DNA from: an uncultured Anaerolineales bacterium
GTDB lineage: Bacteria; Planctomycetota; Phycisphaerae; FEN-1346
Direction: 5' to 3'
DNA: 64,000 bases
NCBI GenBank assembly: GCA_964539385.1
Contig: CAZIJC010000003.1
Span: 1,503 to 65,502 of the forward strand
Part shown: one piece after another, positions 31,140 to 55,531 of the stretch
Layout: each line of letters begins with the position of its first letter
Numbering within the stretch: position 1 is the stretch's first letter
Notes under the pieces: model-generated
The model's database searches: none
Told to the model about the DNA's origin: nothing
What the model saw: the letters and a program-made list of their open reading frames with translations, nothing else
Made by a program: the position numbers and the translations under genes

Positions 31140-31142
31140 CCG

Positions 31143-33835: not shown

Positions 33836-33924
33836 TGGTTCACACCATGTGGCGGTCGGGGCTGCTGCCCGACTACGTACCAACCTTTGCCGATGTTTAT
33901 TGGCTTGCGTTGTAGGGGCCTGTC

Positions 33925-35412: not shown

Positions 35413-35416
35413 GACC

Positions 35417-35809: not shown

Positions 35810-35820
35810 GGGGCAGACAA

Positions 35821-36348
35821 GTGACGGTTTCCGACCTGGCCGCTCAACGCCTGGCCCCCAACACGTGGCGCCTGTCCTGGTCGAGCGACCTGGGCGCCCC
35901 CCTCTTTTACGTCTACCGCGACGGCATCCTCGTGGTGGGACCGATCACCCCGACTTACCTGGTGGTGCGCGTCCCGGACGGCGAAAGCCCGGTCTTTGAC
36001 GTGATAGACCAGGACGGCGTTGCCCCCGACGCCGCCTATCCGGGCCGGGTTACGGTTGCCTGGTGGGGTGTGGACGGGGCCGATCATTACGTGGTGCGCG
36101 AATACGTCGGCGCCGCGTGGGTGGACCGCAAGACGTTCTGGCCGACGCAGGCCGACTATTACAAATGGCTTTCCGCCCGCCTGGCCGACTCGACGCTGCA
36201 CACGTTTCGGGTGGTGGCGGTAGGAGCGGATGGAAACGAAAGCACGGCGGCCGAGCGCGAGGTGTATATGGTGCGCCACCCCGACGAGCCTGCCGTTACA
36301 TTCACCTATGACGATCAGACTGGCAATGTCACCGTAGCCGAGGCGTGA
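35821..36348 (+). CDS. hypothetical tail protein (beta-sandwich/FN3-like)
   Basis: GTG start after AGGGGG RBS. Confidence 0.4.
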   Translation: MTVSDLAAQRLAPNTWRLSWSSDLGAPLFYVYRDGILVVGPITPTYLVVRVPDGESPVFDVIDQDGVAPDAAYPGRVTVAWWGVDGADHYVVREYVGAAWVDRKTFWPTQADYYKWLSARLADSTLHTFRVVAVGADGNESTAAEREVYMVRHPDEPAVTFTYDDQTGNVTVAEA

Positions 36349-36352
36349 TCCG

Positions 36353-41800: not shown

Positions 41801-42561
41801 CGGCCCTGGTGGTCACCGCCGGTGACCCTATCGAGGCGCGGGTCTGGATGCCGACCATCGGGGCCTTTCCGGTTGACCCATCGACAAATCACTATTTTCT
41901 CACGCCCGCCGGCGTGACGGCTGCCGTTTCCTTTGACCAGATAGGCGACAGCGGGGACTTTACGGCCGACCCGGCAACTCTTATCCCGGCTTTGCGCGAC
42001 TACGACGCCGGCAACAATATCGCAGACTGGATTACCGTCCGGGTGGTGCCAGGCAATTGGTCCACCGAGGTGGCCGTCCCCCAGGGCGACGGCCACCTGG
42101 TGGACTGGTCGGGGACTCTGATCGACTATCCCCTGCCTTACGTGGCGTTTGTCGAAGTGGTGGACCCGCATGATACCGGCCTCTGGCAGCGGGCCTATAC
42201 CGGGGACCTCTACAGCGTGACGGCCGCACAGTATCGGTGCTACCTCATCGGGGATATCGGAGCCGGCGCCACCAGTTTCATCGACTACCGCAGCCGACAA
42301 TGGTTTGTCCGTTTTGACCGGCCGCCGCGGGCCGGCGCTATCATCCGGGTGCGCTACGTGGCAGTAAGCGCCTGCAAGTGGCGGTGGGTGGAAATCGCGC
42401 AGGCCATCGAGGGCGGAGATTTGGAGTATGTCCGACCCGAGGGCGGGGAAGATGACGGCTGGCTCCTGATCGACGACGATCCGGAGAGTGACTTTTATGG
42501 TTGTACGGTGCACGGTGACCCTCAAACCACAAAACTCGATACGACAACCCTCGGAGCGTAG
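38812..42561 (+). CDS. large tail fibre/host-specificity protein (1249 aa) with internal duplicated modules
   Basis: ATG at 38812 overlaps previous stop (TGATG); internal repeats IGFVR(M/G)D...PGGG...NAGI(N/D)GAVL. Confidence 0.55.
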   Translation: MATIQINETGAAGTIEDMARVVVYTKAKWSDDWTRARYLWPLRIVDVGGPGVGYASLVFEAGRITQPDLTTWHEYPKLADLSGAFVKICRLAGERPDLGWEWATEFETLWIGVIDIQNLAYHGADASDEACNQTVTAFDLKYLLAGRRLDHAWVCPKTGAEPVRVEWAPPFNQRMRRALPVQGNAVNLGGTVGHVFGRETDDETEALRRWTNADVLQYVLYRFAPRMDPDDDASDLLFYPGGQCALLDNIVEPHDFSGRSVLQIVQRLIDPRRGLGWRVVTDGDAGSTITIEVYSMLPETLTAGGITLERNIRPVSLDVRQDPFAGHAAVTYSRSNAFQTVRVQGNRVLVCCSLSIADGTLEAGWTGTLEAAYKTAAGSSDEAENDRYRGRDQFEHVYSRLAVPAGWDWQAGDGVGGDKINVNIYTDDAGDAITLVPLPAFDEFTAFERGLPLWEGYDYTEWPAVNENPAGAEPYLRRPLVVVKAPNADGDDVWHLADRLSASVDELGKRYPNAGVTMLDGRLCLSVRFTPRHVAALNHWTIEGEDDPAYTRWPPMVDYADFIATVALRGNARLAVVVETGFYCRGRVLTIDVPDADLWWVVAGTVIDVDSGGDLVRMDASRVLHTDADRLKRIAMLAKAYYRRPRYTASLVLRRIDQGLAVGHLLHTLEGEDGAGLDSVITRRVFDFIEGTTTIETANAELDWRSLVADQAGAGLAGVTLARTVGVQGHRLDALERRTANLPDRIPPQTPRDPPGLEFGTVQTRHTNTGTPWGSFEGDGFIEWISVYPCSSNGDGVDEDTTLTIKCTQKAEDTTEAKVGFAHILGGHVIGFVRMDEHETAPGGGPYDGQVVANAGINGAVLSGVEPSHTEIPPCEFGTVLAIKNHADGGWASWEADGWISHVQVDTTYSTGAPVDDSETVWLKAAEDVQAQIGYDTIEVGDVIGFVRGDGWEPKPGGGTFHGYVIPNAGIDGAVLTTYKVRGPILYDPWKYPQVFPALVVTAGDPIEARVWMPTIGAFPVDPSTNHYFLTPAGVTAAVSFDQIGDSGDFTADPATLIPALRDYDAGNNIADWITVRVVPGNWSTEVAVPQGDGHLVDWSGTLIDYPLPYVAFVEVVDPHDTGLWQRAYTGDLYSVTAAQYRCYLIGDIGAGATSFIDYRSRQWFVRFDRPPRAGAIIRVRYVAVSACKWRWVEIAQAIEGGDLEYVRPEGGEDDGWLLIDDDPESDFYGCTVHGDPQTTKLDTTTLGA

Positions 42562-42563
42562 CA

Positions 42564-43004
42564 ATGGCGGGGCCGTGGCACGTTACTAATTTCCGCTTCG
42601 ATAAGGGCGGTCATGCTATTGCGATTCAACTGCGGCGCTGGATTTCCAGTCAGCCCGATGTAGATGAGTGGCAATGGTACGATCTCGACGGCAACCCCAT
42701 AGAGGGGGAATCCGGGTCTGAGCCTGTCTTTCCGCATGTCTGCCTGGGTCTGCGATTAGACGCCCGCGGCCATGCCGTCGCCACTCTTGCATGGCTTGTA
42801 TCTTCTTCTGAATCCGGTCCATTGACGGTACAGTGGTATGACCTTGGCGGCGACCCCGTGGGCGACCCCATACTGTGGGTCGAAGCGGGGCCGGGCGCTG
42901 GTGACCTTGAGCACGTGCGACTCGACGCCCGCGGCCACTTTGTTGCCGTTGCCATGACTTATGAGCACATCTGGTATGATTTGGCTGGACAACTGGCGGC
43001 GTGA
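42564..43004 (+). CDS. repeat-containing hypothetical tail-associated protein
   Basis: Triple WYDL(D/G/A)G and double LDARGH(A/F)VA repeats; RBS GGAGCG. Confidence 0.45.
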   Translation: MAGPWHVTNFRFDKGGHAIAIQLRRWISSQPDVDEWQWYDLDGNPIEGESGSEPVFPHVCLGLRLDARGHAVATLAWLVSSSESGPLTVQWYDLGGDPVGDPILWVEAGPGAGDLEHVRLDARGHFVAVAMTYEHIWYDLAGQLAA

Positions 43005-43279
43005 AAGGCGGTTGCGTGTGCCGTCCCCTGCACGTCTTTGTGCATCAGACTCCCATGGCCGTATCGGGCCACTCCCCGCCCTGATGATGAGGCCATGCGG
43101 CCGCCGAGGCCCAGGCCCCCCCTTGGCAGGACCCTTCCGGGGGGTTCTCTGGCAGGCTGCCGGGTGCCAGGGATTGCGCAGGACGGCCGCAAACCTGCAA
43201 AGGTGGCCCTGGGTAGCCGCGCTTGCCCCCGCGTGCAGCCTGCGCGGCCCTGTGACCGCGTGGGATGCCTGGCGCGGGG

Positions 43280-43495
43280 TTAGGGGTGGGTTAGGGACCG
43301 GGTCGGCGGGGCCAGAGTGGCCGCACACCTGATGATGGCCCTTCTGGCCTTTTTTATGGCGGCCTCAACCGCCTGTCGATCGTCGGGCCGGTTCAGGCCA
43401 TGCTTGACTGTCCGGTCGAGTTGGTCGAGACCCGCCTTGACCCGAAAGAGCGGCCGGAGTTGGCCGGCGTACAGGTTGAACAGTTCGACGGTCAT
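43280..43495 (-). CDS. small hypothetical protein (71 aa)
   Basis: MTVELFNLYAGQLRPLFRVKAGLDQLDRTVKHGL... coding-like; ATGA overlap with upstream gene. Confidence 0.4.
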   Translation of the reverse strand: MTVELFNLYAGQLRPLFRVKAGLDQLDRTVKHGLNRPDDRQAVEAAIKKARRAIIRCAATLAPPTRSLTHP

Positions 43496-43812
43496 GCGCA
43501 ACCTCGTTGCGGTCCACCACGGTGCGGGCGCACCACGCGCAGCCGCGGCCCCGCGGGAGTGGTCCTCTTGGGCCGGTGCCACCTGGCCAGGCGCCGCACG
43601 TGTCCGATACTTACGGCCGCCGTATCGGCCGCCGGCGCCGGGGACTCGCCGCGGCTTAAGCGCTGGATGCGGCTGCGCCTGGTGGCCACGTGCTCCCCCC
43701 GCCACCGCACGGCAGCCGAGCGGCTTGAGCCCAGCGCCACCAGGCGCTGCCTCTCGTCGGGGCCTTGGCCCTTGACCATGAACACGCCCCACAACAAGGT
43801 TGCCTGACTCAT
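43492..43812 (-). CDS. Arg-rich basic hypothetical protein
   Basis: Both ends overlap neighbours by ATGA (43809-43812 and 43492-43495), arguing for a real coupled gene despite low complexity. Confidence 0.35.
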   Translation of the reverse strand: MSQATLLWGVFMVKGQGPDERQRLVALGSSRSAAVRWRGEHVATRRSRIQRLSRGESPAPAADTAAVSIGHVRRLARWHRPKRTTPAGPRLRVVRPHRGGPQRGCA

Positions 43813-44327
43813 CGGTCTCCCTTTCTTGCCGCCAGGTCGGTGATGCCGGCCTGCCGACAGGCATCATCGAGTCGGGCATCGGTCTCGGCAAAACCGAGCA
43901 CGGTCTGGCCGGCCGCCAAGTCACGCCCCAGGGCGCTGAGCCGGTCGGCCCGGCGCCGCAGCGGGTCGATACGCACGGTGAGCCAATGGGCCGCGTCAAA
44001 GCACTCCTGGGGTGTCGTGCAGATATAGAAACCATCCGGGCCGCTGCCGACCGGCTGCCGGCGCTCGACCACCAGGTCGGCCGCCCACTCGCGCACCTGG
44101 GTGCCGCGGCCGTCGGTCTTGACGCCGAGCCTGGCCAGAGCGCCCTTGAGTCTGGTGACCGTCCACGCCGAGCCGACCCCCTGGCAGTAGCGGTGCAGGA
44201 TGCCCAACAAAAGGAACTTGCCGAGGGGATTTTGGGCGGCGGCCCGGCCGGCCTCGGTACTCGAGTCCGGGTGCTCTTGGCCGGCGTCGGCCGCCGCGTC
44301 CCATAACCTGGGACCGTCATCCCCCAT
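43809..44327 (-). CDS. hypothetical protein with repeat-encoded N-terminus MGDDGPRLWD
   Basis: Start codon and RBS AAAGGTGA provided by partial copy of leader repeat R2. Confidence 0.45.
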   Translation of the reverse strand: MGDDGPRLWDAAADAGQEHPDSSTEAGRAAAQNPLGKFLLLGILHRYCQGVGSAWTVTRLKGALARLGVKTDGRGTQVREWAADLVVERRQPVGSGPDGFYICTTPQECFDAAHWLTVRIDPLRRRADRLSALGRDLAAGQTVLGFAETDARLDDACRQAGITDLAARKGDR

Positions 44328-44871
44328 GGTGGGTCACCTTTCTCTTTTTTGCGCGGCGCGCGTACGTATCCCAAATGGCGTAGTCGAGCGCGGCCGGGTC
44401 AAGGTCCAACGTATCTGCAATGCTCAAAAAGAGTACCTCGACCGCCCGGTACCTTGGGCCGGTGGGTGTCGATAAGGGCACGTCGTGGCCCTGCCGGCGC
44501 AACCAGGCCAGGACGTGCCTGTCCAGCGCCGCGTACCGTGCCCCCGGCCGTGTCTTTAACAGAAACATGTGGGCCGTTTTCGGGCCGACGCCGGGTACCG
44601 CTTCCAGATCCGCCACCGTGCACGTGGCCAGGTCGGCAATGGCGCCGGCGAGCAGTCGATTGACCGCCGCTTCGATGACGGCGTAGCGCCCGGTTCCGCA
44701 GGCTTTCAACCACGCCGCCAACCCGCCGCGGTCCGTGCGCCGGTCGCGCAGAGAATCGAAGGGCCGGCCCCAGTCCACAAGACGGCTTAGAACTTTGGTG
44801 GCGAATGCCTCGCTCTTGCCGGCCACAAGGAGACTAAAGAGTATCCATAATTCAAGGTCGGCGGTGCTCAT
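44317..44871 (-). CDS. HhH-GPD family DNA glycosylase
   Basis: Helix-hairpin-helix AVPGVGPKTAHMFLL followed by ALDRHV catalytic Asp block; start could instead be the repeat-encoded ATG at 44938. Confidence 0.65.
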   Translation of the reverse strand: MSTADLELWILFSLLVAGKSEAFATKVLSRLVDWGRPFDSLRDRRTDRGGLAAWLKACGTGRYAVIEAAVNRLLAGAIADLATCTVADLEAVPGVGPKTAHMFLLKTRPGARYAALDRHVLAWLRRQGHDVPLSTPTGPRYRAVEVLFLSIADTLDLDPAALDYAIWDTYARRAKKRKVTHHGG

Positions 44872-44875
44872 GGCC

Positions 44876-44940
44876 GCTTGCCTTTCCTGCTCACCAGCGG
44901 GCGCGCCGTCCCACAATCTGGGACCGTCATCCCCCATCAT
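44876..44940 (-). repeat. leader repeat R2 copy (RBS-containing)
   Basis: GGACGGCGCGCCCGCTGGTGAGCAGGAAAGGCAAG in mRNA sense, shared with 45519-45573; extra MGDDGPRLWD-encoding segment shared with 44297-44340. Confidence 0.6.
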
Positions 44941-45316
44941 GGGGCTTTCTGCATGTGTCATCCACTACGTCGATCTCCACCCGCGGATTGGCGCGGTCAA
45001 TGCCGACCTCGACTTCCTGGTGGACCATGCCGACATCGTCGGCCACCACGCCGGCGTCGGCCAGGCCATCGAACGCCGCCTTCATTGAGGCAAGCAAGTT
45101 GTCCCGATCGCGGCGGCGCGATCGGGCGAAGTAGAATCGGCACGTGACTCGTGCTTGCGTCCATTGCGGCCTGGCACGCGAGAGAGCCACCAGGGCCATG
45201 AGCCGGGCGCACTCGCGGTACCGTTTGACGGTGGCCGCCCGGATGAGTGGGTGCACTCGCGCGTTCGGTGAGAGTTCGCGCGGCGGCGGGCGCAGGATCA
45301 CAGTCACGCCATTCAT
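44927..45316 (-). CDS. rusA: RusA-family Holliday junction resolvase
   Basis: RDRDNLLASMKAAFDGL matches RusA catalytic Asp/Lys region; 129 aa. Confidence 0.7.
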   Translation of the reverse strand: MNGVTVILRPPPRELSPNARVHPLIRAATVKRYRECARLMALVALSRARPQWTQARVTCRFYFARSRRRDRDNLLASMKAAFDGLADAGVVADDVGMVHQEVEVGIDRANPRVEIDVVDDTCRKPHDGG

Positions 45317-45517
45317 GGCGCCTTGGCCTTTCTGCACGCCCTGACGTGGCGCTCAAAGTTGCGCAATGCGTAGATAAGCATGAGTTGCCGCCTACCGGCC
45401 ACCTTCGGCCGGCCGTCCTTGCGCCGGCTGCCGCGCGGATGCTTCACCTGGTAGCGCCCCGGAAACTCTCGACCGCAAACCGGGCAGGTCAACGGCTCAT
45501 CGCGGGCGGTGCTCACG
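45313..45517 (-). CDS. small zinc-finger protein
   Basis: GTG start after AGGAAAGG (in R2 copy); CPVCG...H...C; ATGA overlap with rusA. Confidence 0.4.
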
Positions 45518-46109
45518 GTCTCTTGCCTTTCCTGCTCACCAGCGGGCGCGCCGTCCAATACACCTGGCCGCACACGCTGCATCGGCCCACCCACAGCCGC
45601 ACGTTTTTGCCGCTGCTCGACTGGTAGAAATGATGGGGGTCCATGTTGACCGTCTCGGCCGTGACGTTCTTTTCTCTGGCCCGGTCGTGGGTCTCATCGT
45701 CGGTCGGACAAATGAAAGCAAATGGACCTTCCGGCTCGCGCATGGCCACAAAGCGCCACGTGTCCGGCGCCGGCCAGTCATCGGGCACAGACCCGCCCTT
45801 GCGCATCTGCTGATCGAAGGCCAGAAGCAAGGCCAGGCGCATGGGGATGCGCAGGTCGAGCAAGGTGTGCGGCAGCCAATAGACCTGCCAGTGGCGGCGG
45901 TGGCGGTATCCTTCCGGCCGGCTGCACGCGCCGGGGCGGTCGATGAGGGCGACCACCGCCTCGGCAATTGTGATCCGGCCCTGCCGGAACTCCATCACGT
46001 CGCCGGCAGCCGTCCGCGGGTTTTGGGGGAAGCACCAATGCGGCCATGCCCCGGCGCGGGTGGCGGTAAAGAGCGCGCGGTCGCCGCCGGGCGGCACGCG
46101 GACCCTCAT
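45513..46109 (-). CDS. hypothetical phage protein
   Basis: 198 aa from internal ATG; coupled overlaps on both sides. Confidence 0.45.
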   Translation of the reverse strand: MRVRVPPGGDRALFTATRAGAWPHWCFPQNPRTAAGDVMEFRQGRITIAEAVVALIDRPGACSRPEGYRHRRHWQVYWLPHTLLDLRIPMRLALLLAFDQQMRKGGSVPDDWPAPDTWRFVAMREPEGPFAFICPTDDETHDRAREKNVTAETVNMDPHHFYQSSSGKNVRLWVGRCSVCGQVYWTARPLVSRKGKRP

Positions 46110-46774
46110 GGTGCACCGCCTTCCGTGGCCTTGGCCCTGGCCTGCCATGCGGCTTGCTGCGCCTGGTCGGCCTTGAGGGCATTGGCCCACAGGTCGCCGG
46201 CGGCCGGACACAAGAGGAACCCCAGGGCGGCCTTGACCAGCGTGACGGGAATGGCATCGACCCCCTCGGCCTGCGCGCGCACCAAGGATACAAACTCGTC
46301 GCTCAGGCCGGCCATCGGCTCGGCCTCGGCCTTCACCCCTTCGGCCAGCAGGCGCGCAGCGGCCAGGGCCGCCATGCTCTCAAACCCGATGCACACCTGG
46401 ACCATCCCGGTGCTCGCAAGGTGCAGGACCACCGCGGCCCCATACTCGCCGGCCAGGGCGCGCACCTGTTTGAGCGTGCCGAAGCGGCCACACGGATTCG
46501 GGATGCTGTAGTTGATGCCCCAGGCGGCGCCGGGCGGGCACAGCATCGGCCGGCAACGGTCCTGGGGAATGACCTGCCCCTCGGCCTCAAGCGGCATGGG
46601 CAGCATCCGGTAGCCGGAGACCATCACGGCAAAAAGCCCATTGAGCGTGTCGGTGTCGGCGGCGTCGATTGCGGCCGGCGATAGGCCGGCCAGGACGGCG
46701 CCGCGCACACTGAGCGGAATGTACGGCGGCCGGGCGGGCACGCCGTCGCCCGCGAGCGTTGGTATTTCTATCAT
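46106..46774 (-). CDS. hypothetical phage protein
   Basis: 222 aa, ATGA overlap. Confidence 0.45.
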   Translation of the reverse strand: MIEIPTLAGDGVPARPPYIPLSVRGAVLAGLSPAAIDAADTDTLNGLFAVMVSGYRMLPMPLEAEGQVIPQDRCRPMLCPPGAAWGINYSIPNPCGRFGTLKQVRALAGEYGAAVVLHLASTGMVQVCIGFESMAALAAARLLAEGVKAEAEPMAGLSDEFVSLVRAQAEGVDAIPVTLVKAALGFLLCPAAGDLWANALKADQAQQAAWQARAKATEGGAP

Positions 46775-46825
46775 GGGATTCCCCTTTCTCGATAGGTTTC
46801 TGTGCCCGCCGATCGACGGACGCTT

Positions 46826-47107
46826 TCAGTTTTCTGCAGCCTCTACCTCGGTGACCTTGAAGCGGCCGCGGCCGGGCCGGTCGTACAGCACGGCCACAAA
46901 GTCAAGGCCGTCGGAGCGTGACGCCGTATCCGGCCATGACCACCGCATGTATCGGTGGCGCACGCGCTGGCCGGCGGCCTCAAAATCCACTTCCGCGGCC
47001 GCAACGGTTTTGCGGGCCTGGCCGGCGGGCACGTGTCCCCGAACGTAAAAATACGGCGGGCAATCCTCCCACCACAGTGCCATATATGTACCATCCGGTG
47101 TGGTCAT
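46826..47107 (-). CDS. hypothetical phage protein
   Basis: 93 aa. Confidence 0.4.
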   Translation of the reverse strand: MTTPDGTYMALWWEDCPPYFYVRGHVPAGQARKTVAAAEVDFEAAGQRVRHRYMRWSWPDTASRSDGLDFVAVLYDRPGRGRFKVTEVEAAEN

Positions 47108-47325
47108 TCCTCGGCCCCTTCCGAAATCAGCCCCTCAACATCGGCCTCGTGCCCCGCGATTTGAGCAATCAGGTCGCGGCATTGGCAGGCGGCCTCGTCC
47201 ACGTCGATCTGGCCGTTGGCGGCCGCCAGGCTGATGGCCCACCCGGCCAGGCCGTTCGCGTGGTCCTCAAGCGTTCTTGCGAGCCTTGACCTTTCCGCCG
47301 CGTCTTGCCCGTTTGGGTTTCCCAT
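47104..47325 (-). CDS. hypothetical phage protein
   Basis: 73 aa, acidic. Confidence 0.35.
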   Translation of the reverse strand: MGNPNGQDAAERSRLARTLEDHANGLAGWAISLAAANGQIDVDEAACQCRDLIAQIAGHEADVEGLISEGAEE

Positions 47326-49291
47326 CGGTCTTGCCCTTTCGCTTGGCCTTGGTCCTGGCCGGCTTGGCCGGTTTTACCGGGACCGGCTTTTTCTCGAAAT
47401 CCGACTGCCTCGGCCGGGCCGGCAATTTGATGCCGAGCCGGTCGGCCAGGGCCATCTTGACCAGGCCGTGCATGTTTCCGACCAGGCGTTTGTAGCCTTT
47501 CTCATGGAGTAGGGCGGCCAGGCCGCCAAGGCCCTGTGCTCCGCAGGTCCCCACGGCCACCGCGTCGAGAAAGCCGAGGAACTTTCCAATGGTGCGCCTG
47601 ACTGTGCTGTCGGTGGTGGCCACGCCCCACAACTTGGCGCCCTGGGCGGTCTCGCGTGCCAGGTAGAGGGCGGCCAGGGTCATGGGGTCTCGCGGCAGTT
47701 TGGCCAGCACCGCTTTGGTGGCCTGCTCTTTCCACCGCAAATTGGCCATGTAGAACTTGCCGGCCGGCGTCTTTTCCCAGGCGCCCCCCCCGGCCTCGGT
47801 CTTGGCCTTCGCCTTGGCCGCCGGCTGCAACTGTCTCACCACCGGCCCGACCTTGACCCCGGCCGGCACGTGGACGGCCACGCCTTTGGCGGTCGGCTCG
47901 GCCTTGGCCGCCCGCGCCGCCTTGACCGCCGCCTCGACGGCCTGGTCGGCAAACGTGCTCTTGCGTTTGTAGCACTTGGGGTCAAGGCACTTGCCGCGGG
48001 CCAGGGTTTCGGTGTCCATGGTTGCAAAGAGGGCTGCCGCGTTCTCGGAGTTGTGCGGGCATTCGATGCAGGGCGGGCGGCCGGCAAAGGGTGCATCGAG
48101 GCGCCACCGCACGCCGTACAGGCTGCGGAGCATGTTGGCCACAAGGCGCCGGAGCCGGTCGATGGCCATGCCGCCGGTGCCGTCCTCACGCCTGGCCGCC
48201 GTCGTGGCCACGCTGCCTTGCTCGCGGGCGTCAACCAGTTTGGCGACCTCGTGGGCGTGGGCCAGCGGCAGCCGGCCGTCGATGACCAGGTTGGCCGCCT
48301 TGACGCCCAGGCGCATGAGCACGGTGCGGCCGCGCATCCACGCCACGGACTGGCCGAGCAAAGAGGCCACCTCGCGGATGGCTTCGCGCGGTATCTCGAC
48401 CGCGGCCGCGGCGGTGATCCGCCGGCCGAACTTGGCCTGGCCGGTGATGGCCTTGAGCATATTGCAGACGGCCAGCGCTTCCTCGACCGGGTTCAACTCG
48501 CCGCGGTGCAGATTCTCGATGGCCGCCAGTTGCGCTTGCCAGCCTTCCGAGCCGCCGTCAAAGACCACCGCCGGCACGGTCGTGAGGCCGGCCAGAGCGG
48601 CGGCCAGCACCCGGCGCCGGCCGTAGATGACCCGGTAAGGCGTCGGGTCACCCGCTGGCTTGGTGCGCATCAGGCCCACCGGCTCAAGCACGCCGACTTG
48701 GCGGATGCTCTCGGCCAGGGCCGTCAAGCCCTCGGTCTTGCCGGTCGGCTCAAGCCGGTGGTCCTGGGTGGGGCGTTCGATTTCTCCCAGGTCCACCAGC
48801 ATGAGACCCTCGCGGTGCAGCGTTTCGACGGCCGCCAGGACCGGGGCCGGCCGGAACTTGGGGACCCCCGCCGGCCGCCTGGCCCGAAACTTGGCCCGGT
48901 ACCTGTCGGGGTGCTTGGCCGAGCCGAACACCGTTGCCAATTCATCGAGGCCCCAGGCCAGCGCCTCTTGCTCCGTCTCGGCCGTCTCGGCGCGAATGAC
49001 GCCCGCCGCGCACGTGCTCCCGACGTCCGGGCCGGCGGCCTCGATACCCCAATGCCACCGGCCGGCCGGGGCCTCGGCCAGAAACACCTTGGCCACGACC
49101 TTGCCCCAGGACTTGGGCAGGGCGACCTTGACCGTCTTGAACTTGTCGAATACGCCGGCCGCGGTGAGGTGGTGTGCTTTCTGGCAGTCCGCGCACACCA
49201 CAAACCCGCTGTCGCGCTCTATCATTGCATGTATATCGCCGCATACCCGGCAGGCCGGACGCGGCGCCGCTGATGGTTTGGGCTTGCTCAT
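47267..49291 (-). CDS. ParB/Srx-domain DNA-binding protein with N-terminal zinc ribbon (674 aa)
   Basis: CRVCGD...CADC N-terminus; ParB N-domain (FRPAPVLAAVETLH...EPVGLMR...YRVIYGRRRVLAA); second CIECPH..C cluster; Lys-rich tail. Confidence 0.65.
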   Translation of the reverse strand: MSKPKPSAAPRPACRVCGDIHAMIERDSGFVVCADCQKAHHLTAAGVFDKFKTVKVALPKSWGKVVAKVFLAEAPAGRWHWGIEAAGPDVGSTCAAGVIRAETAETEQEALAWGLDELATVFGSAKHPDRYRAKFRARRPAGVPKFRPAPVLAAVETLHREGLMLVDLGEIERPTQDHRLEPTGKTEGLTALAESIRQVGVLEPVGLMRTKPAGDPTPYRVIYGRRRVLAAALAGLTTVPAVVFDGGSEGWQAQLAAIENLHRGELNPVEEALAVCNMLKAITGQAKFGRRITAAAAVEIPREAIREVASLLGQSVAWMRGRTVLMRLGVKAANLVIDGRLPLAHAHEVAKLVDAREQGSVATTAARREDGTGGMAIDRLRRLVANMLRSLYGVRWRLDAPFAGRPPCIECPHNSENAAALFATMDTETLARGKCLDPKCYKRKSTFADQAVEAAVKAARAAKAEPTAKGVAVHVPAGVKVGPVVRQLQPAAKAKAKTEAGGGAWEKTPAGKFYMANLRWKEQATKAVLAKLPRDPMTLAALYLARETAQGAKLWGVATTDSTVRRTIGKFLGFLDAVAVGTCGAQGLGGLAALLHEKGYKRLVGNMHGLVKMALADRLGIKLPARPRQSDFEKKPVPVKPAKPARTKAKRKGKTDGKPKRARRGGKVKARKNA

Positions 49292-49335
49292 CGTGGAACC
49301 CTTTCAGTTGGGGACCGACCTGGTGGCCGGCCCGG

Positions 49336-49602
49336 CTATGCCTTTGGCTTGCTGGCCGGGATGACCGGCATGTCATAGCCGGCGCCGCGCAGCATGGCCA
49401 GTTGCTCTTTGGTGGCATCGACCACCCCCAGGTTGTCCTTGTACGCCTGGGACGGGGTAATCCACCGGCGGGCGTTGGCCTGGTCGAAATCCACCACCAG
49501 CATGGCCCGGCCGCCGCCGGCCGCCGGCACCACCTCGGCCGATTCGATGACCTCACCTGTCTCAAACAGTACCGCCTTGGGGTCCTGCGCCATCAGTTTC
49601 AT
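49336..49602 (-). CDS. hypothetical phage protein
   Basis: Internal ATG 49602 overlaps Dam stop (ATGA). Confidence 0.4.
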   Translation of the reverse strand: MKLMAQDPKAVLFETGEVIESAEVVPAAGGGRAMLVVDFDQANARRWITPSQAYKDNLGVVDATKEQLAMLRGAGYDMPVIPASKPKA

Positions 49603-50780
49603 GCCTCGCCCTTTCCGGAATCGCCGGCGGCATTGCCGGCGGGTGTATCTTCGGTGGGAAACAAGGGGCCGGCCGTGGCCGACAGGCAATGCGGTGAAAA
49701 GTAGATGCGTTCCCGGTTACGATTGGTCCGGGCGGCCCCGTCGCCCTTGCAGCCGTATCCCCCTTGTGCCGTCCACTTGTACAGCGTCCAATTCGTCGGC
49801 ATCGCGTGCTCTCCCTCGTAGCCGCAAAGCGCAATCCGCATCCGGGGGTCGTCGCCGTGCTCGACCGCCCACGCGCGCGCGGCATCGGCGAGGGCCTGGT
49901 CGTCGCATCGGTACAGGCTGGTGCGTCGTGTTGCCTCTTTGCCATAGGGCGGGTCCAAAAACACCCCGGTCAACCCGGTGCACGTGGTCTGCGCCCGGCC
50001 GAGAATCGAATCCCATTGACCGCAATGCACCCGGACCATGCGCAGCCGGTCACAGAGCGTCCCCATCCATGCACACAAGGCAGCCAGGTGGCCCACCGAT
50101 GCCCCCAGGCCCGCGGGCGCGCCGGCTCCGAGTCCGCGCCGGCGGTTGACCCCCCGGCCACCGTCCCCGCAGTGCAGGCGCTGCCGATTGACCCCGCGGT
50201 GTGCCCGGCCGGTCTGCGGTACCTGTCTGCTGACACCGCGGCCGCCCCGCGTTTTCTTTTTCGTGACACCTTTCGGGCCCTTGCCTGTCTTGCGAAGCGT
50301 GGACGTGCCCCCCTCATTCACCACGTGCCACGGCCCCACCCCGGAGCAAAAGCCGGAACCAATCCAACAACTCATACCCCAGGCCCAGGCACCGGCTATC
50401 TCCGCATCGTAATAGGTACGGTCTGCCTCGATGCGCGCCTGCAATCCGCCAGAGACCTCGACCAACCACAAATGAATGGCGGTGAGGTCGGCGGTGCTTG
50501 GCGGCCGGTCGGCCGCCGCGGCCACTCCGTCCGGATCCGCCCGGACGGCCCGCCAGAAATTGACCACCAGGCCATCGAGGTCGTTCACGGTCTCGATGCC
50601 CGGTGCACCGGGCCGGGCGAGCAACACCGCGCCGGATCCAAAGAACGGTTCGACGTAATTGGGCACGTCGCCGAAGCGCCGCCAGACCTCGGCCGCCGCC
50701 CTGCGCTTGCTCCCGAAATACGGGAAGGGCGCTTGCAGGGCAGGGGGCGCCGCGGGCCGCTTGTGTGAACGCTTGGCCAT
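49599..50780 (-). CDS. DNA adenine methyltransferase (Dam/D12 class) with large internal insertion
   Basis: FPYFGSKRR...EPFFGSGAV (motif I) and VFLDPPY (motif IV); roughly 150-aa Gly/Arg-rich insertion between them. Confidence 0.75.
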   Translation of the reverse strand: MAKRSHKRPAAPPALQAPFPYFGSKRRAAAEVWRRFGDVPNYVEPFFGSGAVLLARPGAPGIETVNDLDGLVVNFWRAVRADPDGVAAAADRPPSTADLTAIHLWLVEVSGGLQARIEADRTYYDAEIAGAWAWGMSCWIGSGFCSGVGPWHVVNEGGTSTLRKTGKGPKGVTKKKTRGGRGVSRQVPQTGRAHRGVNRQRLHCGDGGRGVNRRRGLGAGAPAGLGASVGHLAALCAWMGTLCDRLRMVRVHCGQWDSILGRAQTTCTGLTGVFLDPPYGKEATRRTSLYRCDDQALADAARAWAVEHGDDPRMRIALCGYEGEHAMPTNWTLYKWTAQGGYGCKGDGAARTNRNRERIYFSPHCLSATAGPLFPTEDTPAGNAAGDSGKGEA

Positions 50781-50786
50781 TGGTCC

Positions 50787-51374
50787 TCATTCCCCTTGGG
50801 TGTCGCCGGCGCCGCCATCCTCTTGGCCGTCTGGTGCCGGGTCCGCTGCCAGCGGGGCCAGGGCAAACCATCCCACGTGCGTCGGCTCGGCCAGGTTGCG
50901 GTCGGCCAGGACCCCCAGGCTTTCCCTGGCCGCATTCATGGTGATGCCCAGGGCCGCCGCCACGTCGCCCGGCCCAAGGCCGCCCAGGTGTTTGCTGCGT
51001 TTGGCGTCCAACAGCATCCACGTAAGTTTGTCGATATTTGGAAGGTCTCTGCTGTGGAGCACCGCCGCCTGGACGGCGGCCCATTTGAGATTGGCGTCGT
51101 GCAGTTTCTGGCTCAAACCCACCAGGCGGCCGAATCGCTGGCGCGCGTTGTGGACCTGGTTAGCCAGGCGAATCAGCGCCGTGGCATCCCACCACCTGGT
51201 GGTCCGGGTAACTTTCACCGCGTCGGCCATGGCGTCGTATTCGGCCGGGAGTCCGGATGCCGTTACAATGGTCTGGTGCTCGACCCCGCAACCGATTACC
51301 ATCGTCTGGTCATCCACCGGGAAGGTTTCCGCCGGCCTGTCGATGACGTCCGCGTTCTGCGTGTCGTGCGTCAT
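50787..51374 (-). CDS. hypothetical phage protein
   Basis: 195 aa, ATGA-coupled to initiator gene. Confidence 0.45.
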   Translation of the reverse strand: MTHDTQNADVIDRPAETFPVDDQTMVIGCGVEHQTIVTASGLPAEYDAMADAVKVTRTTRWWDATALIRLANQVHNARQRFGRLVGLSQKLHDANLKWAAVQAAVLHSRDLPNIDKLTWMLLDAKRSKHLGGLGPGDVAAALGITMNAARESLGVLADRNLAEPTHVGWFALAPLAADPAPDGQEDGGAGDTQGE

Positions 51375-52276
51375 TTTTGTCCACCGCCTTTCGTACTGAA
51401 TGACCAGGCATCGAGTTGGTGGGCCTCACGCAACTCAAGAAACCCCCGGTCACCCAGGTCGATGACCAGGCAGTCGTTTTTGTAAACCATCGTGCCGAGG
51501 AGGCCGTCGGCCTTGCGCCGGGCAGAGACCAAGCCATGGGCCTTGAGGTCGGCGAGTCTGCGGTACAGGGCCTCTTGCTGCTGAAGATGCCAGGTGGCGG
51601 CAAACCGGAGCACGTCGGCCGTAAGGTTTTGGTGGCCCACGTCGTGCAGCGGTTTGGCGTCGATGTAGGCTGCCAGGACGTGCTCGGCGTAGGTACCGCG
51701 TGATAGGTCGCCGATGATCCGGGCCACCACGTTTTCACGGCCTTGGCGTGGGCGTTGCCTTTCGTGGAAAAGAAGCGCGAGCGACTGCCACCGCTGCATG
51801 GTGGGAGTTGTCGGGCGGGCAGGGGCACTCTTCCCTGTTGATATTCCGTGTTCTGATTCCGGTGTGTTTTCCACACCGTTTGGGGGTATGGTTTTCATAC
51901 CGTTTGCCCCATGATTTTCATACCGTTTCGGCGGATTAAAGGGTCCGCTTTCCACACCCTTTGCACCGGCCGGCTCGACGGTGGTTTCCTGGGGATAAGC
52001 CACCCAATAGTGGTGCGTGCGCCGCCGGCCGCCGCGCGACCACTCGACCACCAACAGGCCAAGGCCGACCAGGCGGTCGATGGCCTGCCGCGCCGCCTGT
52101 TTGCCGATGCCCAGGTCGGCCGCCATCGACTCGACGCCGGGCCATGCCGCCTCACCCTCGGCGCCCTGGCGATAGGCCACCAAGGCCCACACCAACTTGG
52201 CCGAGGCCGGCAGGTCACGGCGCCGGGCGAGCCACAAGGGCACCGCGAGCCAGTTGGTCGGGTCGTCTCGGCTCAT
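51371..52276 (-). CDS. replication initiator (lambda O-like) with N-terminal winged-helix and internal iterons
   Basis: N-terminal HTH-like LPASAKLVWALVAY...IGKQAARQAIDRLVGLGLL; four direct repeats inside the ORF. Confidence 0.55.
   Translation of the reverse strand: MSRDDPTNWLAVPLWLARRRDLPASAKLVWALVAYRQGAEGEAAWPGVESMAADLGIGKQAARQAIDRLVGLGLLVVEWSRGGRRRTHHYWVAYPQETTVEPAGAKGVESGPFNPPKRYENHGANGMKTIPPNGVENTPESEHGISTGKSAPARPTTPTMQRWQSLALLFHERQRPRQGRENVVARIIGDLSRGTYAEHVLAAYIDAKPLHDVGHQNLTADVLRFAATWHLQQQEALYRRLADLKAHGLVSARRKADGLLGTMVYKNDCLVIDLGDRGFLELREAHQLDAWSFSTKGGGQK
51867..51963. repeat. iteron array (candidate phage origin of replication)
   Basis: Four copies of TTT(T/C)CA(C/T)ACC(G/C)TTTG at 51867, 51891, 51914, 51948. 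Confidence 0.6.
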
Positions 52277-52665
52277 TGAGAAAACCTGGGCTGTTCACGC
52301 TTGCGCCCGGTCCGGCAGTAATCACAAATCAGGCCCCCAAGGATTTTCTTTTGCTCGGCCGGGTCTCGCAGGGCCTTTACGCTGACCACGCGGGGAGGTT
52401 GAACCGGCCTGGTGCGCGGGAATAGTGGCGCCCAACAGGTGCCAACGGTGCCATCCTGCAATGTCCGCATGGCCTGGCAGCAGTGGGTGACCGGGAGTAA
52501 CAGGCCCTTGCCGTCCACCCGCACCCAATACTGCTCGTCGGTGGTGAGCATCCACCACACGCCCCGCCATTTCTTCAACCATTGTGACCTGTGATAGCGG
52601 GTCACCTGGGGCAGCGGCCACGCCTCTTGCTGCGCGTCCTGCCCACACGCCGCAGATTCCGCCAA
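52273..52665 (-). CDS. hypothetical phage protein (Cys-containing)
   Basis: 130 aa, ATGA-coupled to initiator. Confidence 0.4.
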   Translation of the reverse strand: MAESAACGQDAQQEAWPLPQVTRYHRSQWLKKWRGVWWMLTTDEQYWVRVDGKGLLLPVTHCCQAMRTLQDGTVGTCWAPLFPRTRPVQPPRVVSVKALRDPAEQKKILGGLICDYCRTGRKREQPRFSQ

Positions 52666-52850
52666 GGAACCACCACCTTTGCGCCGCCGTCGAGTTGCAC
52701 CGTGCAGTTGCGGGGACCCGGCCCACGGCCGCGCACCAGGACCGTCCCCGTCTCGCCGTGATGAGGAAAGGCATCAGGGAGCCGCGCCACCTTGGCCATG
52801 CTGTATCGCAAGACCACCTTGGTACCAGGCTTGAACATGAGGGGCCTCAA
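52602..52850 (-). CDS. hypothetical small protein
   Basis: 82 aa. Confidence 0.3.
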   Translation of the reverse strand: MRPLMFKPGTKVVLRYSMAKVARLPDAFPHHGETGTVLVRGRGPGPRNCTVQLDGGAKVVVPWRNLRRVGRTRSKRRGRCPR

Positions 52851-53107
52851 TTCCGCCGCGGGTCCGGGGCATCGGGCAGCCGGCGCACTTCCTGCCCGGC
52901 CGCAAGGCGGTCGGCCGCCTTGCGCATGGCGGAGATCGTATCGTCCCGGTGGCAGGTCGAGATATATTGGGTGGCTGCCGGGTCATTGAACACCAGCAAG
53001 ACAAAGAGCGCGGTCTCATCGAGCACGGCCAGTTGGGCCTTGACGGCCTCGGCGCAGCACGTCATCAAAGCGGCCAGTTGTGGTTCGGTCATATCCTGTA
53101 TTCGCAT
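52847..53107 (-). CDS. hypothetical small protein
   Basis: Internal ATG MRIQDMTEPQ..., 86 aa. Confidence 0.35.
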   Translation of the reverse strand: MRIQDMTEPQLAALMTCCAEAVKAQLAVLDETALFVLLVFNDPAATQYISTCHRDDTISAMRKAADRLAAGQEVRRLPDAPDPRRN

Positions 53108-53123
53108 GGGGGGACCTTTCCGG

Positions 53124-53546
53124 TTAGAGGCCCTGCACAATCCGGCCCTCGATGGTCGGCGTGAGGGGGACCTTGACGGAGAAGATGCCGAGCCGCCCCT
53201 TGACGCGGTGTTGCTCCGACGCGGGCAAGAGCGTGGCATCGGCACACAACCATGCTTGCGCCCTGGGATAGACGGTGCAGCACGCGGCGGTCTCATCGTG
53301 CTCCGTCATGGGCCGGCAGCCGGTGACCTTGACCATGCCGACCAGGCGGCCGCGTGGGCCGCGGCCGAAACCGGCGTGCGGCCGCAAGCCCATGGCCGCC
53401 TCATCGACCTTGAGACTGGCCGCGATGAGCAACCATCCGCGGTGCCTCGTGGGCCAGGTCCGGGTTTCAATCGTCTTGATCCCGGACACCAGCATGTTGG
53501 CCCACGGTTGTTTCATGGACAGGCAGGGCAGGGTGATTAGTTCCAT
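53124..53546 (-). CDS. ASCH domain protein
   Basis: MELITLPCLSMKQPWANMLVSGIKTIETRTW typical ASCH/PUA-like start. Confidence 0.6.
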   Translation of the reverse strand: MELITLPCLSMKQPWANMLVSGIKTIETRTWPTRHRGWLLIAASLKVDEAAMGLRPHAGFGRGPRGRLVGMVKVTGCRPMTEHDETAACCTVYPRAQAWLCADATLLPASEQHRVKGRLGIFSVKVPLTPTIEGRIVQGL

Positions 53547-53654
53547 AGCGGGACCCTTCCAGTTGGGCGGGGGCGGGACGGCCGGACAACCGCCCGCGCT
53601 GGGGGCAAGGAGCATCAACCCCGGAGCGCGTTTGACCGCCCCCATATTCAGTTG

Positions 53655-53903
53655 TCAACACAAGCCAGGGTCCTGGGCGGCCGGCCTGGCGTCGGCCGGC
53701 TTGCCGTCGGCCAAGGCCAGGTAGCGGTCGGTCTTGAGCAACACCTGCCTTGGGCCGGGTTGCACCTCGGCCTCGCTGATACTCGCGCTGCCGCGCGCGA
53801 CCGCCGGCCCTGGGACCGCGATGACCTTGGGGCCGGTTCGGACTTTGACCTCGTAGTTGCCCGGCGCTTCACGCATGGCCTGCATCAATTCGTCAACCGT
53901 CAT
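53655..53903 (-). CDS. hypothetical small protein
   Basis: 82 aa, ATGA-coupled. Confidence 0.35.
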   Translation of the reverse strand: MTVDELMQAMREAPGNYEVKVRTGPKVIAVPGPAVARGSASISEAEVQPGPRQVLLKTDRYLALADGKPADARPAAQDPGLC

Positions 53904-54431
53904 GGCGGCCCTTTCCCCGGCACGATACCCTCAAAAAGTGTGGGGGTTTCGGCCGGCATTGGTTTTGCCCTGCGCCGCGGCTTTGTGCGCGCCTCAAGCA
54001 ACGCATCGACCTGTCTGTCGGTGAGGCCGGTGATGACACGGTCCGTAAGGGCCTCGATGCGATTCTCCGTCCTGGGACCGGGGGGCAGGCCCACCGCGAT
54101 GACCGCGGCGCCGAGGGCATTGTCGGCCAAGGCCGTGCCGATGGCTTTGGCCAGGGGCAGGCCGCACAGATCCACGTGCTGCCATTGCCCCCGGCCCTCG
54201 TGGTGCAGGAATACCTGGCGGATGCCGAGCCGGCGGGCCGTCGCGCGCAGGCGGTCGGCGTCGGTGTCCAACAGGTGTGCCCATGGTCCAGGCCAGGCCC
54301 GCCGGAAACAATCGGGGGCAGTTGAGGGGATATGATTGGCGCGCCACACGTGCAACGCCTGCCGCCCGCGGCGTGCCGCCTCGAGCGCCGCCGTCATGGC
54401 CGTGCAGTCAAAGCGCTGGTCATACAGGTCC
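53900..54431 (-). CDS. hypothetical protein (DUF4031-like)
   Basis: Internal ATG MDLYDQRF...; weak resemblance to DUF4031. Confidence 0.35.
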
Positions 54432-54538
54432 ATGCCGGACCTCGGCCAAACTGGTGCGGGCGCCGGATGGAGGGCACCAACCCGACGCCCGCTATTCCGA
54501 CTCCGGTGCAGGGACCGCCCCCGCAACCGGGATGCCGG

Positions 54539-54580
54539 CAAAAAAGGACGGGCGGGGCGGCGACGGCTCCCCGCCCGCTC
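54539..54580 (-). terminator. intrinsic terminator (minus strand)
   Basis: GGGCGGGG / CCCCGCCC stem then T7 on minus strand. Confidence 0.5.
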
Positions 54581-54637
54581 GTACCGATGACGAGTACCGC
54601 CAGGACCGCCCTGGCCGCCGTACCCGTTGCGGTGGGC

Positions 54638-54686
54638 AAAAAAGAGACGGAAGACCCGCGACTGGTTTCGCAGGGCCTTCCGTCTC
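54638..54686 (-). terminator. intrinsic terminator (minus strand)
   Basis: GAGACGGAAG / CTTCCGTCTC 10-bp stem then T6 on minus strand, 9 nt after stop of 54695 gene. Confidence 0.55.
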
Positions 54687-54694
54687 AACATCTG

Positions 54695-54967
54695 TTAGGC
54701 TGCCGGTTTGAGCGGATGTCGGAAAGGCCGGCTGGCCGGCGGCCGGCTCGGCGCGAGCCGCACCGGCGCCGGTTGCCTGCTGCAAAGTTCTCGGTGATAG
54801 TCGCCAACCGTGTCGCGGGCCTGATCCAGGGCCGTCTCGCGGGCCATACACCGTGGACAGACCAGGGCTACCAGCGCAGTTCCGTATGGCGCCGAGGTAC
54901 GCCAAGTGCCGGGCAGGACGTGTTCGTGCCAGTGGCCGCAGACGTGTTTGAGATTTTTTGCCACCAT
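54695..54967 (-). CDS. small Cys/His-rich protein, own transcription unit next to attR
   Basis: CGHWHEH...CPRC; followed by two terminators; last prophage gene. Confidence 0.4.
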   Translation of the reverse strand: MVAKNLKHVCGHWHEHVLPGTWRTSAPYGTALVALVCPRCMARETALDQARDTVGDYHRELCSRQPAPVRLAPSRPPASRPFRHPLKPAA

Positions 54968-55230
54968 CGTTGCTCCTCCTATGATGCGGCGAAGGCGCTT
55001 GGAGGGGCTGTGGGTCGTGGCATGGCGTGGTAGGCGCGCACGGCCTACCGGCAAGCACGAGAAACCGCAAACTTGAAACGGCCTGACATGACAGCCAGCG
55101 CGTGGGGCGTGAATGTAAAAGAAATGAGTTTGCTGCGCGGCGTACTACTTTAAGTCTACGGATATTCGCGCGACAGTCAAGCCGAACGGTCGATTTGGTT
55201 GCGAGGCCCAGGGCCGGCGTGGCCCCGCAA

Positions 55231-55258
55231 ACGTCCGATAATGAGTGTTATGTTGCGC
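55231..55258. other. dif-like site / prophage right attachment site
   Basis: ACGTCCGATAA-TGAGTG-TTATGTTGCGC: 11-6-11 layout with ATAA and TTATG inner arms as in dif sites; first 17 bp repeated at 11127. Confidence 0.5.
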
Positions 55259-55531
55259 GGAGGCTACGTGCAGGGCCAGCGGGAGGCGATTGCTCGCGCA
55301 TGTCCGCACGTCATCGAGCATGCCCATCCTGCGCTATGGCCTGGGTGCGCAAACTGGCGGCGCTCGGAGACCATTGCAGCCTGGCTACTTGAGCACCATC
55401 GTCGCGGGGTTCTGGGAAGGTTGCTTGCGCTACTGCCGGCCGAGAGAGATGAAGGATACCGGCGTACGGTAAATGGCAGGCGACCAACCGTAGGCGCGCT
55501 GCGGGCCTGGTGACGGGCGCGGTGCGTGTGC

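Follow-up and report, generated by a model that had tools for sequence, protein, structure and literature searches.

A tailed prophage with no recognizable integrase at the dif-type site of a Phycisphaerae lineage, a candidate for integration by host XerC/XerD

Results

A 44-kb tailed prophage is inserted precisely between chromosomal genes

We analyzed a 64,000-nucleotide (nt) stretch of contig CAZIJC010000003.1 (the window; ~66% G+C), which holds a prophage of 44,104 bp that is flanked by chromosomal genes and abuts a 28-bp site resembling dif, the chromosomal site of the recombinases XerC and XerD. The features are collected in Table 1. Genes were called with a codon-usage model trained on the window. 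The left flank encodes HisRS, biotin synthase, a ketoacyl synthase, an ABC transporter and ribosomal protein S21. The right flank carries pilMNO-pilB-pilC and the gene of an FHA protein, the homologs of which are labeled Phycisphaerae by their sources. Between the flanks lie genes for TerS, a lambda gpA-type TerL, a lambda-family portal protein, tail and fiber proteins (including fiber-like proteins of 819 and 1250 aa downstream of the packaging genes), methyltransferases, two ParB-like proteins, an O-like replication initiator and a RusA resolvase, together with many open reading frames (ORFs) that match no family; about 40 prophage ORFs have no assigned function. Judged by its TerL, portal, TerS and tail genes, the element is a tailed phage (Caudoviricetes). 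The closest relatives of its TerL are only 35-43% identical and are located at contig ends, with their lysogeny modules beyond reach. By megablast, no similar annotated phage was found, and a search of IMG/VR gave no close relative of the TerL. The window is identical to contig Ga0309839_1000176 of JGI metagenome 3300028837. The lysogen was also present, with 100% identical DNA, in four further samples, and the phage was integrated in all five.

A 17-bp exact direct repeat, ACGTCCGATAATGAGTG, occurs at 11127-11143 and 55231-55247 and nowhere else in the window. Two matches were obtained in none of 100 dinucleotide-preserving shuffles of the window. The right copy extends into a complete site with an 11-6-11 layout, ACGTCCGATAA TGAGTG TTATGTTGCGC, after which GGAGG follows. 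A reading made earlier from the sequence alone (the sequence-only reading) had proposed a 28-bp site of this form within 55225-55262, and it is indeed present there, at 55231-55258. By direct reading, it consists of two partially palindromic 11-bp arms and a 6-bp spacer with the inner motifs ATAA/TTAT, in agreement with a logo of 121 sites (see below). For the dif-like core CCGATAA-N6-TTATGTT, 0.06 occurrences would be expected in the window, which has one. The left repeat copy is followed by CGGGGAGGTGC, not by TTATGTTGCGC. Thus, the asymmetry described in the sequence-only reading is real: the left copy comprises an XerC arm and the central region only, while the right copy is a full dif. 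The arm that we designate XerC type presumably binds XerC, and the other one XerD.

When positions 11144-55247 were removed in silico, the joined flanks were 95.8% identical over 828 nt to a prophage-free locus, L001. The flanking proteins of this contig (L001/L142) are 98-99% identical to those of the window. There, the FHA gene and the S21 gene adjoin each other, and the empty site between them reads CCCAAACCCT ACGTCCGATAA TGTATG TTATGTTGCGC GGAGGCTACG. Within the 28-mer, the window differs from L001 only at the two middle bases of the central region (TGAGTG versus TGTATG). Related lineages provided eight more contigs that lack a prophage and have the site at the equivalent place; its central region is TGTATG or TGCATG in these, and TACATG or TGTATC in four additional ones. 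Since the 17-bp repeat bounds the element and excision in silico restores the empty site of the relatives, the insertion is precise.

The phage attachment site (attP) was reconstructed from the phage-derived halves of the two junctions, attR-left and attL-right, and reads GGCCCCGCAA-ACGTCCGATAA-TGAGTG-CGGGGAGGTGC. It has a perfect XerC arm, a left flank that follows the consensus of chromosomal sites, a 6-bp central region and no XerD arm. Hence attL is a hybrid with an XerC arm only, and attR is a full dif with an XerC arm that is now of phage origin.

Table 1. Coordinates of attachment sites and selected genes (window positions unless a locus is named)
Feature	Position	Strand	Remarks
attL core	11127..11143	+	XerC-type arm ACGTCCGATAA 11127-11137 and central region TGAGTG 11138-11143; host DNA to the left
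attL/attP degenerate XerD-arm position, phage-derived	11144..11154	+	CGGGGAGGTGC; 4/11 match to host arm TTATGTTGCGC
Prophage body	11144..55230	.	44,104 bp including one core
TerL (GpA_ATPase and GpA_nuclease)	18660..20642	+	Pfam E=2e-57, 2e-47
Portal protein, lambda family	21370..22887	+	Phage_portal_2, E=1e-59
RusA-like Holliday-junction resolvase	44927..45337	-	phrog_34, E=1e-18
90-aa C-x-H...C-x-x-C protein	54695..54967	-	AGGAGG ribosome-binding site; first gene beside attP/attR
attR left flank, phage-derived	55221..55230	+	GGCCCCGCAA; phylum-wide left-of-dif consensus: C-rich block, A at position 0
attR, complete 28-bp dif	55231..55258	+	XerC arm 55231-55241, central region 55242-55247, XerD arm TTATGTTGCGC 55248-55258
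Inverted XerC-arm copies	L064 3632-3700; L153 9255-9296; L069 245-521; L101 3159-3210		

The attachment site is of the dif type of this lineage

The match of the 28-mer to Escherichia coli dif is modest: by direct reading the arms agree at 5/11 and 7/11 positions, and agreement is limited to ATAA/TTATGTT. Taken alone, this would leave room for a coincidental resemblance of an AT-rich, palindrome-like att core in intergenic DNA. The site fits the dif of the Planctomycetes-Verrucomicrobia-Chlamydiae (PVC) group far better than the E. coli and Bacillus subtilis examples with which the sequence-only reading had compared it. For Chlamydiae, Kono et al. (2011, PMC3025954) predicted ACGTCTGATAA-TATGTA-TTATGTTGAAT and TGGTCTGATAA-TATGTA-TTATGTTGCAT, and their Acidobacterium site starts with ACGTCTGATAA. 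The window arms match their predicted sites at 10/11 and 9/11 positions. No dif was predicted in that study for its single planctomycete, although only genomes bearing XerCD orthologs had been analyzed, which puts a planctomycete among the XerCD-bearing genomes.

We scanned one genome per species for the pattern CGTCCGATAA-N6-TTATGTTGC (19 specified bases; 1.2e12 positions). It was present at at least 120 genome loci, against ~4 expected by chance. Among the matches listed, 100 of 120 carry a Planctomycetota label (Phycisphaerae, Planctomycetia, Pirellulaceae, Gemmatales and Brocadiaceae), and the remaining ones are mostly Armatimonadota, Chlamydiota or mislabeled bins. Nearly every one of the listed loci has a single site, and each complete genome listed has one. 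Both arms are conserved across Planctomycetota. Conservation extends to bases that the pattern left unspecified: A is found at position 1 in 90% of sites and at position 0 in 80%, T occupies positions 28 and 29 in 73%, and positions -11 to -8 are C-rich. For the central region, which varies, the consensus among the genome sites is T-R-T-A-T-G. The derived consensus, (C)A-ACGTCCGATAA-TRTATG-TTATGTTGC-RT-T, has no prior description as far as the searched literature shows. When the 121 genome sites (L005-L124) were viewed together, C at -1 and a G-rich right flank were additionally apparent beside the C-rich block at -11 to -8, A at 0 and T at 28/29. Replication skew or FtsK-orienting polar sequence (KOPS)-like motifs would predict the reverse of the polarity seen in these immediate flanks. 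The left part of this conserved extension is copied by the phage attP.

The site is located at 51.6% of CP054190.1 and at 47% of the Kolteria novifilia chromosome (NZ_CP036279.1), positions that are informative only if these records start near oriC. In an orientation-invariant test of 44 loci with at least 1.5 kb on each side, GC skew left of the site exceeded that on the right in 31 loci (Wilcoxon p=0.007), and AT skew did so in 33 (p=0.0002). Skew polarity across the site is that of a terminus and not that of a random locus or an origin. The GC-skew check suggested in the sequence-only reading gave a terminus polarity over the related loci, while the window's own flanks were uninformative and a terminus position is not demonstrable there. 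Two Planctomycetota metagenome-assembled genomes (MAGs) have xer genes beside the site: an XerD gene scoring above the NCBI XerD equivalog cut-off lies 54 nt from it in L096 (1092-2189), and an XerC-type gene is found ~1 kb away in L042 (5305-7234).

On the strength of the match to published sites, the conservation, the chromosomal position, the skew polarity and the neighboring xer genes, we regard the bacterial attachment site (attB) as the dif-type XerC/XerD site of this lineage, beyond mere resemblance. Phylum-wide arm conservation, terminus-type skew, mid-chromosome position and adjacent xer genes effectively refute a coincidence, which we consider extremely improbable.

Some loci have additional copies of the site or of its XerC arm. 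In a Kuenenia stuttgartiensis MAG (L120), two complete dif-type sites in inverted orientation are 48 bp apart (2373, minus strand, and 2421, plus strand) and differ in their central regions (TCATCA versus TGTCTC). At several loci (Table 1), an inverted XerC-arm copy (TTATCGGACCT or TTATCGGACGT) lies on the phage or XerD side, separated from the site by 3-17 nt; in L153, the XerC arm and the 6-bp central region are followed by 14 further nt and then by this copy. In some attP sites, XerC may thus have a second binding element.

No recombinase of a known family is encoded by the prophage

Pfam searches with the 55 called prophage ORFs revealed no Phage_integrase, Resolvase/Recombinase, DDE, IS110 or excisionase family. 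The first Pfam pass was run on concatenated proteins at a cost of ~3 bits of sensitivity, and it missed the ParB of g19, which PHROGs found. PHROGs searches with the 30 ORFs of both end modules gave no integrase either, the sole match in the category "integration and excision" being a weak helix-turn-helix within TerS. Because gene calling in high-GC DNA is error-prone, all frames were also scanned: 262 stop-to-stop ORFs of at least 80 aa, from six frames of 11049-55812, gave one irrelevant zinc-finger match in Pfam and nothing more. XafT (DUF3653) had no Pfam match in any prophage ORF, again in all frames. The prophage contains no non-coding gap big enough for a recombinase gene. The statement of the sequence-only reading that the 44 kb lack a recognizable integrase, DDE transposase or excisionase has thus held up in profile searches of all frames, which by their nature detect known families.

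The left-end module contains a gene resembling the "DNA topoisomerase" phrog_6247 (13907-14814, minus strand) with the Toprim motif GDHDPSG. It is split by a frameshift near 14465, such that 14377-14814 corresponds to profile positions 4-117 and 13907-14485 to positions 119-301. The split gene could be a pseudogene, an assembly error or a case of programmed frameshifting.

The same dif harbors other prophages

The dif is a prophage hot spot, with at least three other prophages at the same site in relatives. In L003 (GCA_030602705.1), a distinct prophage with ERF and LexA-like repressor genes abuts a full dif beside the FHA gene. The contig apparently ends inside this prophage, and a search with the ABC-transporter homolog led not to its far junction but to the lysogen L153 and to more empty sites. 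A third prophage (L064/L128) is located on the XerD side of a full dif and encodes a ParB-like protein 40% identical to that of the window. A fourth (L153, GCA_040960625.1) has an attL with an XerC arm only, next to S21, as in the window. The left-armed arrangement is therefore common to the window and L153, while that in L064 is right-sided. No integrase was detected in the readable parts of the prophages in L003, L064/L128 and L153.

The full site was also present in 14 IMG/VR contigs. In L133 (1105-1129; equal to L125; the IMG/VR contigs measure 24 and 50 kb), such a complete dif-like site lies within a tailed-phage genome. Its central region, CGGGGG, is unusual, and its neighbors are an SSB-like gene on one side and, on the other, a structural module that includes an SU10-type portal. 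Among the families listed, which excluded ten weak ones, no strong integrase match was detected within 6 kb of the IMG/VR-contig sites. In L129/L136, the site is located immediately upstream of a ribosome-binding site and ATG.

One candidate from L003 was examined and rejected. Its "transposase" (Transposase_20, phrog_4285; 11548-12366) matches PDB entries, 9mty included, of an IS110-C-terminal-domain protein and of TasH, and its gene is followed by a tandem array of 36-nt units, GTGCGAGCCA-N8-CTGAAACCCA-N8 (12505-12893). Given the matches to Tas-type proteins and the array, we do not regard it as a dif-targeting recombinase; presumably, gene and array together are a phage-borne TIGR-Tas RNA-guided system.

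The other prophages bear on the idea that the window element has lost a conventional attP-adjacent integrase and is a locked-in, decaying remnant, with dif as the former target of that integrase. The frameshift in the topoisomerase-like gene, the integrated state of all five sampled lysogen contigs with their 100% identical DNA, and ~1.1 kb of non-coding DNA around attP would agree with decay. Set against this, the three other prophages at the same dif also lack an integrase at their readable ends, no integrase remnant was detected in any frame, attP-proximal non-coding DNA included, and the packaging, head, tail and replication genes are intact. We consider such a loss unlikely.

Central regions differ between lysogens and empty sites

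In the window lysogen, TGAGTG is found at both junctions, whereas nine prophage-free relatives have TGTATG. Other lysogens deviate as well: the central region is TCATTG at attR of L003, and TATATG at attL of L153 versus TACATG in the nearest empty relatives. Overall, the central region is unusually variable between close relatives. The occurrence of TGAGTG at both window junctions means that either the dif of this strain already had this sequence or the central region was converted. The crossover at attL must have been located within the 13 bases left of the AG dinucleotide. For attR, it must lie in the TG or at the border that follows on the right. Both limits are consistent with the two Xer cleavage positions. 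Three origins of TGAGTG remain. It could have been present already in the dif of this strain. Alternatively, a full two-strand exchange could have created heteroduplexes that were repaired toward the phage sequence at both junctions. Finally, the phage central region could have been moved to the chromosome by cycles in which the phage was integrated at one border and excised at the other. The differences suggest that resident phages imprint the central region of dif.

A rare 90-aa protein is encoded next to the attachment site

The gene closest to attR was missed by the gene caller and was revealed by tblastn of the junction-proximal ORF of L003 against the window. Its 90-aa product is 73% identical to a 93-aa homolog encoded in L003 (11154-11435, plus strand). 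Mismatches between the two are distributed as 16/13/35 over the codon positions, a third-position excess as for coding sequence under selection. The same counts support the 93-aa gene at the L003 junction, where a 189-aa gene call was rejected as being in the wrong frame. This is the sole gene common to the window prophage and the otherwise unrelated L003 prophage, and it is att-adjacent in both.

The protein belongs to a rare family, with 17 clusters among 1.84 billion representatives. C10, C37 and C40 are invariant, and H12 is nearly so. An AlphaFold2 (AF2) model with a predicted local distance difference test (pLDDT) score of 88 shows a beta-hairpin and two helices. Sequence and fold searches with the protein yielded no known family and no informative or significant structural neighbor. 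In two short contigs (L162, L163), homologs are encoded after an HNH-like gene and not at an att site, behind a conserved upstream motif. The protein, which is predicted to bind Zn, may be a regulator, perhaps simply an early one. It is also the best candidate for an Xer accessory factor.

The protein has to be considered in another role too, since a phage-encoded recombinase of an unrecognized family could target dif without involvement of host Xer. Candidates would be the ~40 unannotated ORFs, the 90-aa protein and the Toprim-containing topoisomerase-like gene. Most prophage ORFs have no family match, the 90-aa gene alone is common to two unrelated dif prophages and is attP-adjacent with no structural neighbor, and the phrog_6247 homolog with its Toprim motif is part of the left-end module. 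But a beta-hairpin with two helices is unlikely to be a strand-transferase, the L162/L163 homologs follow an HNH-like gene instead of an att site, and the topoisomerase-like gene is frameshifted. In addition, the 13 bases common to attP and the ancestral dif, together with the crossover limits, fit the geometry of Xer cleavage. Of the alternatives to integration by host XerC/XerD, we regard this as the main one, with a minor chance.

Other repeats and RNA-like elements in the window

The tRNA/tmRNA and Rfam searches of the window and both att regions gave no match. On the prophage side of attL (11200-11440), T-arm-like motifs GGGGGTTCGAT, a 14-bp inverted repeat GAGTTGGAGTCTGA ... TCAGACTCCAACTC and, on the minus strand, an intrinsic-terminator-like hairpin with a T-run were noted. 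An RNA gene made of the T-arm-like fragments (11213-11345) was rejected: ARAGORN and Rfam were empty, and folding was no better than that of shuffled sequences.

A ~50-nt sequence is present three times (13833-13882, 14811-14860 and 15269-15318; 74-94% identical) at the 5' ends of consecutive minus-strand genes. Each copy spans a ribosome-binding site, a start codon and the GC-rich palindrome TGGCCACCATTGGCCGGCCGG, and the triplicate may be a repeated promoter/operator or leader. Repeats of 46-52 nt (44288-44333/44898-44943 and 44860-44911/45505-45556; 85-94% identical) lie at the starts of neighboring minus-strand genes, which thereby share the N-terminus MGDDGPRLWD...; one of these genes, 44317-44961, encodes a helix-hairpin-helix (HhH), DNA-glycosylase-like protein. 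Two tandem repeats are coding. One (24580-24759, 18-nt period), an Ala/Asp/Glu/Lys-rich repeat, lies in the prophage gene 24560-25069, and the other (55661-55741, 15-nt period) where the host FHA gene encodes the C-terminal part of its product.

Discussion

The element described here is probably a ~44-kb temperate tailed phage that was integrated at the Phycisphaerae dif by host XerC/XerD, with an attP that mimics the XerC half of the site. The proposal of the sequence-only reading, a candidate Xer-dependent element, is supported by the sequence data at that strength, as a candidate. We infer XerC/XerD catalysis, the order of strand exchange and its reversibility. Host XerC/XerD would bring attP and dif together in a synapse, and strands would be exchanged where the central region meets the arms. 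In one version, XerC would act first and the resulting Holliday junction would be resolved by replication or by the phage RusA, which could in principle resolve the junction left by a single Xer strand exchange. In the other version, a complete two-step exchange would take place. The products would be a hybrid attL without an XerD arm and a regenerated full dif, attR, which would go on serving chromosome dimer resolution and stay open to further elements.

Several points weigh against integration by host XerC/XerD. The host's own xerC and xerD were not seen, as the 64-kb window contains no xer gene. The ~40 function-less prophage ORFs could hide a new kind of recombinase, and the profile searches with concatenated proteins lost sensitivity. 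XerD would have to be positioned and activated, yet attP has no XerD arm and no XafT-like factor was found. Had XerC alone carried out one exchange into a TGTATG site, attR would still read TGTATG. Moreover, no free attP was detected in a junction search of IMG/VR. Scans of metagenome contigs for attP were empty too but uninformative, as the control junction of the source contig itself was also missed.

The two ParB-like proteins and the O-like initiator raise the question of whether the element is a plasmid-like episome, in which the dif-like site would serve host XerCD as a cer-type multimer-resolution site and integration would be an occasional by-product. ColE1 is a precedent for Xer-resolved plasmids (cited in PMC9226527). 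However, no ParA or other partition ATPase was found in the prophage, the lysogen was integrated in all five samples, and a site without an XerD arm would be a poor resolution site. XerCD would still be required, so that this explanation differs from Xer-mediated phage integration in lifestyle only. We see a slim chance for it.

Under Xer-mediated integration, the element is best read as a tailed-phage member of the integrative mobile elements exploiting Xer (IMEX). It is integrated at dif, it has no recombinase of a known family, its attP partly mimics dif and one junction regenerates dif. The closest precedent is TLCphi, an IMEX satellite phage of Vibrio cholerae, which also integrates at dif without an integrase and regenerates a functional dif at one junction (PMC9226527). 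Both have a good XerC arm and central region and a deviant XerD arm, 8/11 bases of the TLCphi arm being off canonical (PMC9226527) and 7/11 of the window arm deviating. TLCphi differs in being a ~5-kb filamentous satellite that replicates by rolling circle and encodes XafT (DUF3653), which activates XerD; its integration is XerD-first and XafT-driven (PMC9226527). The window element, in contrast, is a 44-kb tailed double-stranded DNA (dsDNA) phage of a Planctomycetota host with no DUF3653 match. For CTXphi and VGJphi, an XerC-only exchange followed by resolution of the Holliday junction through replication has been described (PMC9226527).

The double-jelly-roll prophages of Vibrio and the CTX/VGJ-type inoviruses also exploit XerC/XerD and form hot spots and arrays at dif (PMC12715192). 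Their dif-like attP sites are 28-bp, 17-bp left-armed or 17-bp right-armed, and the architecture of the window attP is that of the 17-bp left-armed class known from the tailless Vibrio prophages (PMC12715192). These elements are smaller than 16 kb and non-tailed, with rstR/xafT terminal genes, whereas the window element has a lambda-type terminase, a portal and a full tail module. With lambda-like temperate phages it shares the gpA-type terminase, the portal, the O-like initiator, RusA and single-copy integration between short direct repeats. Unlike them, it has no int or xis and is attached at the host dif instead of a tRNA gene or another intergenic site. The target site itself resembles the dif/XerCD predictions for Chlamydiae and Acidobacteria in its 11-6-11 layout and near-identical arms (Kono et al. 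2011, PMC3025954). Like such chromosomal dif sites, the Planctomycetota site is opposite the origin, with xer genes nearby in some genomes.

In the literature searched, which was incompletely covered, the Xer exploiters are inoviruses, satellite phages, tailless double-jelly-roll phages and islands, with no tailed phage among them. Nothing was found there on Planctomycetota prophages at dif, and with this coverage an earlier description elsewhere is possible. Xer exploitation is viewed as a means by which very small elements, such as inoviruses, microviruses, islands and tailless double-jelly-roll phages, economize on genome size.

More tentatively, we put forward a wider picture that is possible, though doubtful at present. 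A guild of integrase-less tailed phages of Planctomycetota, and possibly of other phyla sharing this dif, might use XerC/XerD and compete for the single dif with left-armed, right-armed or full dif mimics. By overwriting the central region, which is TGTATG in empty sites but TGAGTG, TCATTG or TATATG in the lysogens, they might drive its diversity, and the Zn-binding protein might be a new factor for Xer activation or directionality.

If integration by host XerC/XerD is true, large temperate phages can also do without an integrase, and prophage detection based on integrases would miss them. The analysis also provides a testable dif consensus for Planctomycetota, where a published genome-wide prediction had failed. 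It suggests that dif is a hot spot contested among prophages, in a phylum with atypical cell division and chromosome segregation and with hardly any known phages. How lysogens differ from prophage-free relatives in the central region would be a natural record of the position of strand exchange.

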